Both the position numbers and the translations under genes were made by a program. Of a DNA stretch of 49,301 nucleotides, positions 41,600 to 45,148 are shown piece by piece. This DNA comes from a virus. The stretch is taken from UHGV virus genome UHGV-0103780; one strand, given 5' to 3'. Within the stretch, counting starts at the first letter, position 1. Each line of letters begins with the position of its first letter. The notes under the pieces are model-generated. The model ran no database searches and had not been told where the DNA came from. It saw only the letters and a program-made list of their open reading frames with translations.

Positions 41600-41845
41600 T
41601 TGGCAGAACGTGTTGATGATGCAGAGCTGAGCATGAATCAGTTAGAAGCTCTCAAAGACATGGCCATCGATAACATCAGAAAGCAGGCACAGGTCGTGAG
41701 CCAGGTATTTACAGGGAAGTGTCGTTACTGCAATGAATCGATTGAATCAGGCATTTATTGTGACGCTGAATGTGCGCAATGGCACAGGGAAGAGCAGGCT
41801 GCAAAACAGCGTAAATATGGCATGCGACCGGCAGGATTTGACTGA
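41600..41845 (+). CDS. small C4 zinc-finger protein (TraR/DksA-like), 81 aa
   Basis: CRYCNESIESGIYCDAEC motif. Confidence 0.45.
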   Translation: MAERVDDAELSMNQLEALKDMAIDNIRKQAQVVSQVFTGKCRYCNESIESGIYCDAECAQWHREEQAAKQRKYGMRPAGFD

Positions 41846-41847
41846 TT

Positions 41848-42426
41848 ATGTTGCGCTTTACTGAGGAAGAGTTTCAGGCTTTTAGTGAGCGTCGAAATAA
41901 GGGGCGGTCCAGGCCAAAAACCAAAAAGGATCCATTCTTATCGCTTGCGCCGGTAAAAGAAGTTTCTCCACATGCGAAGGCACTTGCAGCACTGGCAAAG
42001 AACCCCGACCTGCGCGACGGAAATTGCGAGCACTTCGAGCAGGTTTTCATTTTTGATTACTTCGAACGCAAGCACCCTGACATCTATGAGCTGTTGCATG
42101 CAACGCCTAACGGAGGGAAACGTTCAAAAGCAACCGCCGGGAAAATGAAGGCTGAAGGGCAGAAAAAAGGTTATCCGGACATGAGTCTCGATAAAGCATG
42201 CGGTATTTATCACGGCATGCGAATTGAGCTTAAAGAACCAAATGGTAAAGCCCCGACGAAAGAGCAGATCGCCTGGATGCGCAGGCTTAGAGAGGAAGGT
42301 TACTACGTCGTTCTTGCGTATGGTGCAGAACAAGCGATAACCGCCATCCTGGAATACATGAGCCTTAAAAAGGGTGAGGCTATTGAGCATGTATTGAACG
42401 GTGACAAGTGGTTGTTCGCTACGTGA
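41848..42426 (+). CDS. VRR-NUC domain nuclease-like protein, 192 aa
   Basis: HATPNGGKRS...KAEGQKKGYPD...GMRIELKEPNGK...QIAWMRRL, matching the VRR-NUC signature as recalled. Confidence 0.5.
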   Translation: MLRFTEEEFQAFSERRNKGRSRPKTKKDPFLSLAPVKEVSPHAKALAALAKNPDLRDGNCEHFEQVFIFDYFERKHPDIYELLHATPNGGKRSKATAGKMKAEGQKKGYPDMSLDKACGIYHGMRIELKEPNGKAPTKEQIAWMRRLREEGYYVVLAYGAEQAITAILEYMSLKKGEAIEHVLNGDKWLFAT

Positions 42427-42450
42427 AATAATAAATTAATTAGTGCATAT

Positions 42451-42648
42451 GTGTTCTTTGATACAGCGCACATTAACATCGGGAGAATAATCGTGTCATC
42501 CAAGGCTAATTATGAATCGCTGGCATCGATCATGCCGCGTAATGAACAGGAAGCAGATGCTGTAGTGGACCCGGTAATCGCTGAAATGAATGCTCGCCTG
42601 GAGGCTGAATTTGCAGCTGAGAATGAACATACCACCCAGGGCGACTAG
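42451..42648 (+). CDS. hypothetical small protein, 65 aa
   Basis: ORF only; overlaps the start of the next gene. Confidence 0.3.
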   Translation: MFFDTAHINIGRIIVSSKANYESLASIMPRNEQEADAVVDPVIAEMNARLEAEFAAENEHTTQGD

Positions 42649-43252
42649 GACTGTTTTTTGTGTCGGTAGCGGTCCGTCACTCACTCGTGAGGACTGTGCT
42701 GCTATAGAAAAAACTGGCTGTTCAATCATCGCGGTTAACAATTCCTGGCAGATGTTCGATGACATTTATGCCTTATACGCCGGTGATTTGTCATGGTGGA
42801 AGCAATACGGATCCACCATACCGGGAGGGAAATTCCGCAAAGTGACAGCCAACCTGGCGGCGGCGAAATCATTTTCGTTGGAGTACAGGCGATATTGTGG
42901 ACCGGCGGAAGGGGTAAATAGCGGCGCGCAGGCTATCAGTCTGGCTGCTGAATCAGGGGCTGAAGTAGTTGTATTAGTCGGCTATGACTGTTCTCTGCAA
43001 AACGGCCTTCATTGGCATGGCGCGCACCCTCAAGCCCTACGGAATCCAACGCAGGTGTCTATTTCAAAATGGCAACAGCAGTTCCTGGATACCCGCAAAA
43101 AACACGCAGATTTACATATTTTGAATGCAAGTAGGAGCAGTGCAATTCAATGTTTCCCAAGAATAAATTTAGAGGCAGTGATCGCGTTATTATCGTCGGC
43201 AGTGGCCCAAGCGCCGCAAACTTTGTTGCGCCGCGCGGAGTGCCGATTATAG
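42590..43252 (+). CDS. hypothetical protein, paralogue A of a GSGPS-motif pair, 220 aa
   Basis: VFCVGSGPS...IIAVNNS...VVLVGYD; clear paralogue of the next gene and overlaps it by about 100 bp. Confidence 0.5.
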   Translation: MLAWRLNLQLRMNIPPRATRTVFCVGSGPSLTREDCAAIEKTGCSIIAVNNSWQMFDDIYALYAGDLSWWKQYGSTIPGGKFRKVTANLAAAKSFSLEYRRYCGPAEGVNSGAQAISLAAESGAEVVVLVGYDCSLQNGLHWHGAHPQALRNPTQVSISKWQQQFLDTRKKHADLHILNASRSSAIQCFPRINLEAVIALLSSAVAQAPQTLLRRAECRL

Positions 43253-43776
43253 CGGTCAATGGGGCCATCGACTGGCTGAACCGCGCTTCTTATTTTTTCA
43301 CACTTGATCCATCGCCAGACAATATGCGGCGCGTTGGTCGTGGCCGCCGTCGCCGTGGTGTTTGTTATTGCATGGCACTACCCGATGTTAAAGAACGTGA
43401 AGTCAGAGACGGCGTTCTGTGCTTCCGTCGTGTGGCTGAACGTGGCATGGAGCCAAAAAATATGAATTCTCCCGAGTGGTGGGCGTGGCGCTGGTCCGCA
43501 CATTTCGGACTTTGCGAAGATGAGAATGAAATTGCCAGCGGCAATAGTGCATATGGCGCTCTGAACCTGGCTTTCCATATCGGATTCAAACATGTCGCCC
43601 TGGTGGGCGTTGACGCTACACAAGAACCACGCGTTCACTCCGGCGGCACGCCAAAAAATCTAAGTCACCTGCCTTTGTTATTCCAGTCTGCGCGTGAACA
43701 GATTGACGTTGTTTCATGCGGGAAAATGGGAGGTATTCCGCAGATGACTCTTAAAGAATGGCTGAAGAATACATGA
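43150..43776 (+). CDS. hypothetical protein, paralogue B of the GSGPS-motif pair, 208 aa
   Basis: VIIVGSGPS...IIAVNGA...VALVGVD; AGGAG SD before the ATG. Confidence 0.5.
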
Positions 43777-44450
43777 TGGCACCCACAATTTATCACCGTA
43801 TCGACGGTACCAAATACAGGAATGTCTGGGTTGTTGGTGATCTGCATGGTTGCTACACCAGACTGATGTCCGAACTCCATCGTGTGGATTTTGACCCGGC
43901 GCAGGATTTACTGATATCGGTCGGCGACCTTATCGATCGCGGTACTGAAAATGTCGAATGTCTGGAACTATTGCAGATGCCCTGGTTCAGGGCAGTGATG
44001 GGGAACCATGAGCGGCTGATGATTGATGCGTTAAGTCCAGATGGCAACGTGAATAACTGGCTAATGAATGGCGGACAATGGTTCTTCATGCTGGACACTG
44101 ATCAGGAAATATTAGCCTGGGCGCTGGTGGAGCTGGTAAAGCGTCTGCCCTATATCATTGAGTTGAACACCGGGCAAGAAACTATCGTTATAGCCCATGC
44201 CGACTATCCGGATAATGAATACCAATTCGGTAAGGAGGTGCCGCTTTTCAACGTTGTCTGGGCGCGCGAGCGTATCAGTGATTCGATGGATGATATTGGT
44301 GGCGAAATTTCGGGCGCAGATCGTTTTATCTTTGGTCACACTCCGGTGAAAAGCCCGAAGACATTCTGGAATCAGCAGTATATCGACACTGGTGCCGTAT
44401 TTTGCGGAAACCTGACATTGATGAAAGTGAAAGGTGATGGTGCAGCATGA
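43758..44450 (+). CDS. Ser/Thr protein phosphatase (calcineurin-like metallophosphoesterase), 230 aa
   Basis: Motifs GDLHG, GDLIDRG, GNHE. Confidence 0.75.
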
Positions 44451-45148
44451 AGATTGCTTTAGTTTTTCGCTCTGGTGGTGACTATAACGCTTCCGATGTG
44501 CAGTGGCTGGTTAATCAACTGCCAAAAGGCTATGAAATTATTTGCCTGACAGACCTGAAGCGTTTACATGTACCTGGCGTCAAAGTTGTCCCATTGATCA
44601 ACCAGTGGCAAAAGTGCCGTGGCTGGTGGGCGAAAATCGAGTTGTTCCGACCGGATATAACAGATGATCTGTTCTATCTGGATTTGGACACAGTTATTGC
44701 CGGTGATATACGCCCAATCCTTGAGAATCCACCAACCAGCTTCACCATGCTTAGGGATTTTTACCATCCACAATATCGTGGTAGCGGTGCCCTGTGGATA
44801 CCAAATAGTGTAAAAGCGCATATCTGGAGTTCATTCTGGCAAGATCCGGAAGGTTGGATTTCTCGTTGTGTCACTACTGAGTGCTGGGGTGATCAGGGGT
44901 TCTTACGGAAGGTTATGGGCGATGATACACCAGCATTTCAGGATCTGTATCCAGGATGGTTTGTAAGTTACAAGGCCGATGTTGTGGAACCTGGTTCAAA
45001 ATATGCGAGCGCGCGTTACTCCAGGGGGAATGGGGCATTACCAAAGGACTGCCGAATAATCTTTTTCCACGGCAAACCGCGACCTCGCGAAGTGTCAGAG
45101 GATTGGCTTCCCCTTATTAGCTCGTTTTTTGAGCGAGAATCAGAATAA
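44447..45148 (+). CDS. putative nucleotide-sugar transferase-like protein (DxD motif), 233 aa
   Basis: [12 protein letters not shown] motif; last gene of the operon, followed by a terminator. Confidence 0.4.

Follow-up and report, generated by a model that had tools for sequence, protein, structure and literature searches.

The window, a stretch of 49,301 nucleotides from virus genome UHGV-0103780, is a P1-type phage-plasmid. Positions 41600-45148 correspond in the curated P1 annotation to pmgL, pmgM, pmgN, pmgO, pmgP, ppp, and pmgQ, seven co-oriented and closely spaced open reading frames (Table 1). Over 4 kb, the region was 100% identical in nucleotide sequence to phage RCS47 and 98.5% identical to P1, with the same seven coding sequences, and individual proteins differed from those in P1-type records by 0-4 amino acids. 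P1 features were transferred from the AF234172 annotation (window coordinate = L001 coordinate + 38899). The P1 cluster (GenBank AF234172; P7 upf81.0/81.2-hdmA-D; RCS47) has the same gene set, order, operators, and terminator as the window, with no material difference; the pmgM-pmgN spacer holding Oppp differs from P1 at 9 of 66 bases. An earlier note on this DNA had described seven tightly packed, co-oriented genes with an operator-like site before them and a terminator after them, all of which we found in place. Its gene calls (a TraR-like zinc finger for PmgL, a VRR-NUC nuclease for PmgM, a Ser/Thr phosphatase for Ppp, and a DxD transferase-like gene for PmgQ) were essentially right. The observation is real but not new: annotation of the locus goes back to the original P1 genome deposit.

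Table 1. Genes and control elements of the pmgL-pmgQ cluster, in window coordinates.
Feature	Position	Strand	Description	Basis
LPpmgL	41493..41511	+	late promoter; -22 element common to divergent LP26	P1 AF234172 annotation
O26 (former Op82)	41526..41542	-	C1 repressor operator	pattern search and P1 annotation
pmgL	41600..41845	+	81-aa putative DksA/TraR-like zinc-finger protein	phrog_54, E 1.6e-12
pmgM	41848..42426	+	192-aa putative VRR-NUC / Holliday-junction-resolvase-like nuclease	
PpmgN	42394-42420		predicted promoter accompanying Oppp	P1 annotation
Oppp (former Op83)	42433..42449	-	second C1 operator	P1 and P7 annotations
pmgN	42493..42648	+	small acidic protein, 51 aa; 65 aa if GTG 42451 is the start, as in P7 hdmA	
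pmgO	42590..43252	+	220-aa minimal Maf/GT42/MptE-like enzyme; trio member 1	
pmgP	43150..43776	+	208-aa ancient PmgO paralogue; trio member 2	
ppp	43758..44450	+	lambda NinI/PrpA-type Ser/Thr protein phosphatase	
pmgQ	44447..45148	+	233-aa putative GT8-like (glycogenin/Gat1-like) retaining DxD glycosyltransferase; trio member 3	
Op86a	45150-45166	+	C1 operator	pattern search and P1 annotation
Hairpin	45175-45202		terminator-like; U-run after	folding: -13.4 kcal/mol, z -5.7
Op86b	45199-45215	-	C1 operator	pattern search and P1 annotation

The region upstream of pmgL (41454-41599) differed from P1 at 1 of 146 bases. A pattern search for C1 operators, in which matches with up to 3 mismatches were listed, returned 9 sites in the window compared to 0.18 expected by chance. 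O26 on the minus strand reads ATTGCACTAATAATTTT, with 2 mismatches to the consensus ATTGCTCTAATAAATTT, and is overlapped by the predicted sigma-70 promoters P2pmgL and P1pmgL (41503-41563). The operators of the cluster lie at their P1 positions: Op82, Op86a, and Op86b were found with at most 3 mismatches, while Oppp/Op83 has 4, was hence missing from that listing, and was placed by annotation. At the cluster end, which is identical to P1 (45150..45215), Op86a and Op86b flank the hairpin and, according to the P1 annotation, govern the next unit, pmgR-pmgS. The hairpin distal to pmgQ was not called by the terminator scan but was seen on direct folding, and no terminator was found ahead of 45175 inside the cluster. 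C1 control and a closing terminator, both proposed earlier, agree with the curated P1 annotation. The P1 annotation also places Op83/Oppp with a promoter between pmgM and pmgN and a late promoter upstream of pmgL, giving the cluster an internal control point as well as late expression.

The four genes outside the pmgO, pmgP, and pmgQ trio resemble unrelated accessory genes. PmgL is identical to P1 PmgL and carries CxxC-x9-CxxxC, compared to the zf-dskA_traR family pattern CxxC-x17-CxxC, with no Pfam zf-dskA_traR match. PmgM scored 21.2 bits against Pfam VRR_NUC (PF08774), under the cut-off of 23.8, matched the Holliday junction resolvase family phrog_5702 (E 5.9e-27), and is named VRR-NUC in RefSeq. 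PmgN belongs to PHROG 2350, to which no function is assigned there, and to no known family. Ppp has a calcineurin-like metallophosphoesterase domain above threshold (Pfam Metallophos E 9e-16, 59.3 bits versus a 21.5 cut-off), is NinI-like (phrog_246, E 5e-113), and matched NCBIfam PRK11439 (E 3e-81) at 272.5 bits, under the equivalog cut-off of 326. NCBIfam held no model for PmgL, PmgM, PmgN, PmgO, PmgP, or PmgQ.

A scan of viral contigs with a PmgP alignment returned 80 near-identical P1-type contigs with no diversity; the informative scan was that of species-dereplicated genomes. PmgO, PmgP, and PmgQ travel together at about 20 loci spanning Alpha-, Beta-, and Gammaproteobacteria, Bacteroidota, lytic myophages, and jumbo phages, and occur as natural O-P, P-Q, and Q-P fusion proteins. 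Outside P1-type plasmids, co-occurrence is limited to these three, with no Ppp, PmgL, PmgM, or PmgN alongside. Among the loci compared, pmgL and pmgN were present in P1-type loci only, and ppp, which separates pmgP from pmgQ there, was missing from that position in every non-P1 locus. A fourth universal cassette gene was looked for across trio loci and not found, as the extra genes vary. Collectively, these comparisons show that the functional core of the cluster is the trio PmgO, PmgP, and PmgQ, which many unrelated phages inherit as a unit, in rearranged order or at times as fusions. Judged by gene content, PmgL, PmgM, PmgN, and Ppp are P1-specific passengers and not part of this core; they would be lambdoid 'nin'-type accessory genes with no link to the trio beyond a common transcription unit in P1. 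The earlier note had instead read nuclease, phosphatase, and transferases as one functional mix. Co-orientation, tight packing, common C1 control, and the uninterrupted stretch up to 45175 would fit a single seven-gene pathway, but the passengers never join the trio outside P1-type plasmids, phage D6 carries ppp without the trio amid lambdoid accessory genes, and the internal operator and promoter split the cluster. Such a pathway is very unlikely and is already contradicted by the comparative data.

PmgO and PmgP share related motifs (VFCVGSGPS...IIAVN...LVGYD and VIIVGSGPS...IIAVN...LVGVD, respectively). BLASTP aligned the N-terminal motif only (14/36 identical, E 0.003), while profile-profile comparison extended over 162 columns (98% probability, E 1.8e-13, 24% identity). 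Fold searches with either protein gave the same ranking of matches, which together with the profile comparison supports the earlier suggestion that the two are paralogues. Their genes overlap by 103 bp (43150-43252). A tandem duplication with an overlap of about 100 bp had been considered unusual, but other lineages also have O/P overlaps, of 7-94 bp, and part of the length of the P1 overlap comes from a PmgO tail that is poorly conserved and of low confidence. The true start of pmgO may be M12 at 42623. A recent tandem duplication in P1 was ruled out by the restricted BLASTP match, the low profile identity, and the presence of both paralogues in distant phyla; on these sequence comparisons, the duplication is ancient and common to several phyla.

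The paralogues had been said to have a Rossmann-like nucleotide-binding look, which was borne out, and remote-homology and structure checks resolved this to an MptE-like/Maf/GT42 fold. The single Rossmann-like domain of each protein matched Maf, MptE, and GT42 structures, with Maf the best match for both (158-164 residues of the 632-aa Maf structure aligned). Both were under the gathering threshold of 34.6 bits for PF01973 (MptE-like/DUF115; PmgO 23.6 bits, PmgP 21.1 bits), and some homologues have a precomputed PF01973 match. No significant match to PDB sequences came from searching with PmgO, PmgP, or PmgQ as single sequences or, family by family, as profiles; the informative searches used a merged O+P profile and a PmgQ family profile matched to solved structures. 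At the sequence level, the merged profile recovered only GT42 sialyltransferases, among them Cst-I and Cst-II of Campylobacter jejuni (E about 0.01). The N-terminal GxGPS loop and the central (T/N)SG...GxD nucleotide-sugar-binding motif, invariant or near-invariant in both families, align to Cst-II residues 1-16 and 129-158. PmgO H141, H143, and H146 and PmgP H173 are invariant, while the lid region and catalytic His188 of Cst-II could not be reliably aligned.

We considered whether PmgO and PmgP could be pyrophosphokinases of the MptE or thiamin-pyrophosphokinase type that act on a small molecule. This is highly improbable given the ranking of Maf and the recovery of sialyltransferases alone at the sequence level, the constant pairing, and in places fusion, with a GT8-like transferase, and neighbors that include other glycosyltransferases and sugar-type methyltransferases. 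The RefSeq/PHROG label 'alpha-2,3-sialyltransferase' was also rejected as a literal activity, as the similarity is at the level of fold and the phage has no sialic-acid synthesis genes. Because E. coli K-12 is not known to carry sialic-acid synthesis genes and makes no CMP-sialic acid, the label almost certainly does not describe the reaction. Maf flagellin nonulosonic-acid O-glycosyltransferases (for example Magnetospirillum Maf, PDB 5MU5, and that of Clostridium botulinum) reach about 600 aa and carry acceptor-binding domains at both termini. By comparison, PmgO and PmgP (family median 214 aa) are catalytic cores of about 200 aa alone, with 15-18% identity, below the Pfam threshold. They also differ in being phage-encoded and paired with a GT8-like enzyme, and their donor and acceptor are putative.

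PmgQ, assigned to the glycosyltransferase family phrog_1962, belongs to an orphan family of about 200-240 aa without a Pfam model. Its family profile matched Gat1 (6mw5, E 8.4e-9), glycogenin (about 3e-5), and GT8 (5gvv, 3.5e-3), while Pfam GT8 (PF01501) had no match to the window PmgQ and matched 5 of 32 family members only at E>=0.08. Alignment to GT8 enzymes (glycogenin; the Skp1 alpha-galactosyltransferase Gat1; LPS-core RfaI/RfaJ type; streptococcal GlyE) extends over about 150 residues and covers the Lys, DxD, GDQG, and His motifs, with K63, D79-L-D81, G148-D149-Q150, and H208...P211 as invariant columns. Compared to GT8, the family is shorter and below the Pfam threshold.

The genomic neighborhoods of the trio bear on its target. 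It often adjoins genes for capsid, terminase, or lysis, and its positions include those following the major capsid gene or the terminase, between the lysis cassette and the terminase, and in late operons after antiterminator Q and lysis genes. Additional glycosyltransferases or methyltransferases are frequent neighbors, including a GT-A-like family (L005, L098, L095, L099) and methyltransferases (L096, L103, L102). This recurrence suggests that these phages may glycosylate something of their own. The earlier note had proposed host takeover or nucleic-acid/envelope modification, which keeps some likelihood, but the positions after capsid, after terminase, and in the lysis-terminase interval point more to a probable late or virion-directed role.

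Our best reading, which we hold at a little under even confidence, is that the trio is a dispensable, late-expressed glycosylation cassette that would act most likely on virion proteins using host CMP-Kdo and UDP-hexose. It would be cytoplasmic and, in P1, silenced by C1 in the lysogen, then expressed after C1 derepression and from the late promoter. A host CMP-sugar would supply the ulosonic acid moved by the two Maf-like enzymes, and PmgQ would add a hexose from a UDP-sugar. The acceptor of the resulting short glycan would be made by the phage and would most likely be a capsid or other surface protein of the virion. To our knowledge, CMP-Kdo is the sole CMP-ulosonic donor universal in these Gram-negative hosts, and because no donor-synthesis genes accompany the trio, we propose it as the donor. 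Use of CMP-Kdo by Maf in E. coli has precedent (PMC11339370). The modification would be dispensable for laboratory plaque formation; published P1 knockouts had no plaque defect and no change in antirestriction activity (PMC9024508). None of the seven proteins matched a PADLOC defence model at E<=0.01, which together with the same knockouts argues against a defence or anti-defence role.

If glycosylation were instead directed at the envelope, remodelling of the LPS core after induction could mask the P1 receptor, sparing progeny from debris or blocking superinfection. The P1 receptor is the terminal core glucose, and alpha-hexosyltransferases of the LPS outer core are members of the GT8 family, with which PmgQ groups by profile. 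The Kdo- or sialic-type sugars that Maf/GT42-like enzymes use are found in LPS and LOS, every trio host is an LPS-bearing diderm, and the trio proteins are soluble, as peripheral LPS-core transferases are. However, C1 keeps the genes off in the lysogen, and they lie in late operons, unlike known seroconversion genes, which the prophage expresses; late expression leaves little time for new LPS to reach the surface. The trio also has no flippase or membrane component, and the P1 knockouts lack a plating phenotype. We regard LPS remodelling as unlikely.

In a host-takeover role, the acceptor could be one or more host cytoplasmic proteins whose glycosylation redirects physiology in lytic growth, much as particular proteins are targeted by bacterial GT-A effectors and by Maf enzymes. 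Maf, the closest structural relative, O-glycosylates Ser/Thr residues of proteins; the closest relatives of PmgQ, Gat1 and glycogenin, have proteins or protein-linked glycans as substrates; and the P1 genes are also expressed early, upon C1 derepression. On enterobacterial chromosomes, a PmgO-like gene comes immediately after invasin/Big_1 adhesin genes, suggesting that non-virion acceptors are possible. A host target is nevertheless unlikely: head/packaging-module positions in several phages favor a phage-made acceptor, conservation from Bacteroidota to Gammaproteobacteria would demand a very conserved host protein, and there is no growth phenotype.

DNA hypermodification by phage glycosyltransferases is well documented, and in L102, L105, XacN1, and IME392 the trio adjoins ribonucleotide reductase, ThyX, dNMP kinase, ligase, or PolX genes, as might be expected if it glycosylated DNA bases or nucleotides to evade restriction. 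Against this, no hydroxymethylase, TET, or other base-activating gene accompanied the trio in the contexts examined, and the nearest folds are protein or glycan transferases rather than GT-B DNA glucosyltransferases. P1 DNA is readily cut and cloned, with methylation the only modification known to us. With antirestriction activity unchanged in the knockouts (PMC9024508), we give this explanation very little weight.

A virion-directed cassette would have a parallel in mycobacteriophages, where capsid and tail-tube subunits are reported to be glycosylated by glycosyltransferases that are likewise phage-encoded, cytoplasmic, and dispensable and act on the phage's own particle. That system uses other enzyme families in Actinobacteria hosts and is experimentally demonstrated, whereas the present one is predicted from genes and their context. 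In the literature searched, we found no virion glycosylation system or glycosylated capsids for phages of Gram-negative hosts, no link between DUF115/MptE-like proteins and phage capsids, and no mention of glycans in P1 structural and proteomic work. A fuller version of our reading is a tentative possibility: P1 and a scattering of other phages of Gram-negative bacteria may carry a dedicated, minimal three-enzyme O-glycosylation system in which two Maf/GT42-like paralogues of roughly 200 aa work with a GT8-like enzyme. It would decorate the phage's own virion proteins with a short glycan, with CMP-Kdo (or a different CMP-ulosonic acid) and UDP-hexose drawn from the host, and the variable neighboring methyltransferases and glycosyltransferases would diversify the glycan.

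The pmgO, pmgP, and pmgQ genes have been labelled 'putative morphogenetic function' since P1 was annotated, and knockouts left them as 'non-essential, unknown'. Linkage across phyla, fusions, glycan-type neighbors, and capsid/terminase adjacency offer a concrete, testable role. Were this reading correct, the trio would give the first description of particle glycosylation in phages of diderm hosts and the earliest examples of Maf-type catalytic cores standing alone, and protein glyco-engineering in E. coli would gain very small Maf-type enzymes. Glycosylation of P1 particles, if real, would affect how a workhorse transducing phage is seen by immune systems, by receptors on debris, and by the environment, and the same would hold for P1-type phage-plasmids, which spread resistance genes.

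The window is DNA of a P1-type phage-plasmid. Over 41400-45400 it matches Escherichia phage RCS47 at 100% identity and phage P1 at 98.5%, and the seven open reading frames described in the earlier note were found to be P1's annotated genes pmgL to pmgQ. Each cluster protein has only 0-4 residue differences from its P1 counterpart and the regulatory DNA on either side is nearly identical, so P1's curated operator and promoter annotation transfers to the window. The operator-like site noted upstream of the cluster is P1's C1 operator O26/Op82, and the proposed terminator corresponds to a strong hairpin with a U-run, bracketed by Op86a and Op86b, the operators that govern the following unit. 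A second C1 operator and promoter inside the cluster, together with a late promoter before pmgL, imply an internal control point and late expression besides derepression. Because the locus, its regulation and the labels "sialyltransferase" and "glycosyltransferase" are in public records, the observation as first stated is already known.

Features of the pmgL-pmgQ cluster and its control sites
Feature	Position	Strand	Details	Source
C1 operator O26/Op82	41526-41542	minus	2 mismatches to consensus	
Lpa-type late promoter	upstream of pmgL			P1 annotation
pmgL	41600-41845			P1 annotation
pmgM	41848-42426			P1 annotation
C1 operator Op83/Oppp	42433-42449		between pmgM and pmgN, with a promoter there	P1 annotation
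pmgN	42493-42648		alternative start 42451 as in P7	P1, P7 annotation
pmgO	42590-43252		possible true start M12 at 42623	P1 annotation
pmgP	43150-43776			P1 annotation
ppp	43758-44450			P1 annotation
pmgQ	44447-45148			P1 annotation
Terminator-like hairpin	45175-45202		-13.4 kcal/mol, z -5.7, then U-run; closes cluster	

A pattern search across the window returned nine C1-operator matches, compared to 0.18 expected by chance. Six lie elsewhere in the window (11319, 12989, 27945, 31467/31478, 47291), including an overlapping divergent pair at 31467-31494, and fit the scattered C1 regulon of P1. Of the 66 bases in the pmgM-pmgN spacer (42427-42492), where Op83 and the alternative pmgN start lie, 9 differ from P1, compared to 0-1 base in the regulatory regions flanking the cluster; the spacer is a patch of local divergence or recombination within a near-identical cluster. 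The small, acidic pmgN product is restricted to P1-type elements; pmgN is essential by CRISPRi (EOP 1.4e-2) and non-essential by a reported single-gene knockout, with all downstream genes non-essential (PMC10695390).

Co-occurrence was assessed by running HMMs of the PmgO, PmgP and PmgQ families against diverse loci. The three genes were found together in a D3-like Pseudomonas prophage (L005), in prophage remnants of Serratia, Pseudescherichia and Buttiauxella, in Zhongshania (L096), Commensalibacter (L098), Brevundimonas (L101), Alloalcanivorax (L103) and the Bacteroidota member Sinomicrobium (L102), and in Citrobacter phage phiNP, the lytic E. coli myophage IME392 and the Xanthomonas jumbo phage XacN1. 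Their usual order is O-P-(x)-Q; wherever enough sequence was available P and Q are both present, and O is in most loci. Metagenomic proteins fuse them into single polypeptides, as O-P (P0051), P-Q (P0180, P0250) or Q-P (P0230, P0271). P0230 (616 aa) has an extra C-terminal region of ~200 aa without an assigned domain. Among the loci searched, Ppp, PmgL, PmgM, PmgN, PmgR and PmgS were confined to P1-type plasmids. Since the trio occurs elsewhere without these passengers, the seven-gene cluster is a P1-specific juxtaposition; the seven genes do not form one functional unit, and the single seven-gene pathway envisaged in the earlier note is improbable. In it, ppp splits the conserved three-enzyme cassette, and "nin-like" passengers lie ahead of the cassette. 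Phage D6 carries ppp among lambdoid accessory genes and lacks the trio, so ppp moves as an independent module. The D6 gene (4447-5139; 89.7% at the DNA level) is the sole part of the cluster common to D6, and its neighbours include ead/Ea22-like genes.

As described earlier, both PmgO and PmgP carry GSGPS, IAVN and LVG(Y/V)D motifs, and their genes overlap by 103 bp. BLASTP aligned them over the N-terminal motif only (14/36 identical, E 0.003), while their family profiles aligned over 162 columns (98% probability, E 1.8e-13, 24% identity). They are therefore true paralogues by profile alignment, but the motif-only BLASTP match and low profile identity mark the duplication as ancient. Family alignments gave the signatures CxASGPSL, IAVN, YAGDxxWW, NSG and GYDCSxxxGxHWHGxH for PmgO, and VASGPSA, IAVNGA, FTLD, SPEWWxWRW, GNSAYGA, VGVDA and NLSHLPLLF for PmgP. 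An invariant or near-invariant Cys/His set in PmgO (C24, C36, C134, H141, H143, H146), within GYDCS...HWHGxH, is absent from PmgP and points to a metal site, or to separate catalytic machinery, in PmgO alone. Because most PmgO homologues start closer to the motif, and residues 1-16 are disordered in the predicted model, translation may truly begin at M12. The PmgP family is small: a search of 1.84 billion proteins yielded 512 cluster representatives at E<=1e-3. None of the relatives found at the structure level in other phages has been characterised.

The overlap had been considered unusual, but other lineages have it too: the two genes share 7-11 bp in the Pseudomonas, Commensalibacter and Brevundimonas loci, 49 bp in a Pantoea P1-type plasmid and 94 bp in phiNP. 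In P1, the shared DNA encodes the constrained N-terminus of PmgP and a PmgO tail that is poorly conserved and modelled with low confidence. The phiNP value takes the full-length start of its PmgP-like gene (OR565852, 7001-7621), labelled "alpha-2,3-sialyltransferase" in GenBank with an internal start (7091) that drops the GSGPS motif; its PmgO-like gene (6492-7094, HMM E 5e-80) is missing from that annotation.

No Pfam or NCBIfam model matched PmgQ. A profile of 32 family members matched GT8 retaining glycosyltransferases, including Gat1, the Skp1 alpha-galactosyltransferase (E 8.4e-9), glycogenin (~3e-5) and a streptococcal GT8 (3.5e-3), and invariant K63, D79-x-D81, G148-D149-Q150 and H208...P211 align with the GT8 Lys, DxD, GDQG and His motifs. 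XacN1 ORF373 is a PmgQ-like protein of 438 aa.

Our main new result is that the trio is a conserved, sometimes fused cassette of phage late/head modules. In three HK97-type prophages (L005, L096, L104) it comes directly after the major capsid gene, in L098 after TerL, and in L101 after a Mu-F-like head protein, where the trio is 3 kb away from the capsid gene. In the lambdoids L103 and phiNP it is flanked by the lysis cassette and TerS, and four lytic or jumbo phages have it next to genes for ribonucleotide reductase, ThyX, ligase or PolX. Interleaved genes encode glycan-type enzymes: an extra nucleotide-diphospho-sugar-transferase-like DxD family (L005, L098, L095, L099), class I SAM methyltransferases (L096, L103) and an FkbM methyltransferase (L102). 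Genes for making CMP-sugars or nonulosonic acids were not seen in trio loci, and all hosts are diderms.

In Pseudescherichia, other Enterobacteriaceae and Serratia chromosomes (L090 5357-9512, also L091-L094; L004 2674-5115), a PmgO-like gene directly follows, in the same orientation, an inverse-autotransporter/invasin gene (IAT_beta with seven Big_1 repeats) or two Big_1 genes, with P and Q ~4 kb off beside phage lysis genes. This may reflect a domesticated trio glycosylating an adhesin, or coincidence in a prophage remnant.

All P1 cluster proteins lack hydrophobic segments, and Maf enzymes expressed in E. coli draw on the host's CMP-Kdo to attach Kdo to Ser/Thr (PMC11339370). From these features, the gene contexts, glycan-type neighbours, diderm hosts and lack of donor genes, we infer that the trio could form a glycosylation cassette, expressed late and working in the cytoplasm, that takes CMP-Kdo and UDP-hexose from the host to modify an acceptor of phage origin; the most plausible one is a virion protein. 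Against a virion acceptor, the P1 virion proteome paper and two cryo-EM papers mention no glycan on particles, and in P1 itself the trio is not adjacent to the capsid gene. The GT8 family also includes LPS-core enzymes, which again counts against a virion target and would fit LPS remodelling by the trio, an unlikely alternative that we rank slightly ahead of glycosylation of host proteins. The nucleotide-metabolic contexts of some trios likewise count against virion glycosylation and would fit DNA or nucleotide modification, but P1 single-gene knockouts had no antirestriction defect (PMC9024508), and we regard such modification as very improbable. Pyrophosphokinase chemistry is equally so, although the PmgO/PmgP fold is common to pyrophosphokinases and this was weighed against glycosylation. 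No cluster protein matched known defence-system models. The knockouts also left plaquing unaffected, and pmgL, M, O, P, Q and ppp are nonessential by CRISPRi (PMC10695390), indicating that the cassette is dispensable. Tentatively, virion O-glycosylation encoded by phages of Gram-negative bacteria and carried out by minimal Maf-type enzymes is a possible role; it gives genes left without an assigned function ever since the P1 annotation a hypothesis that can be tested.
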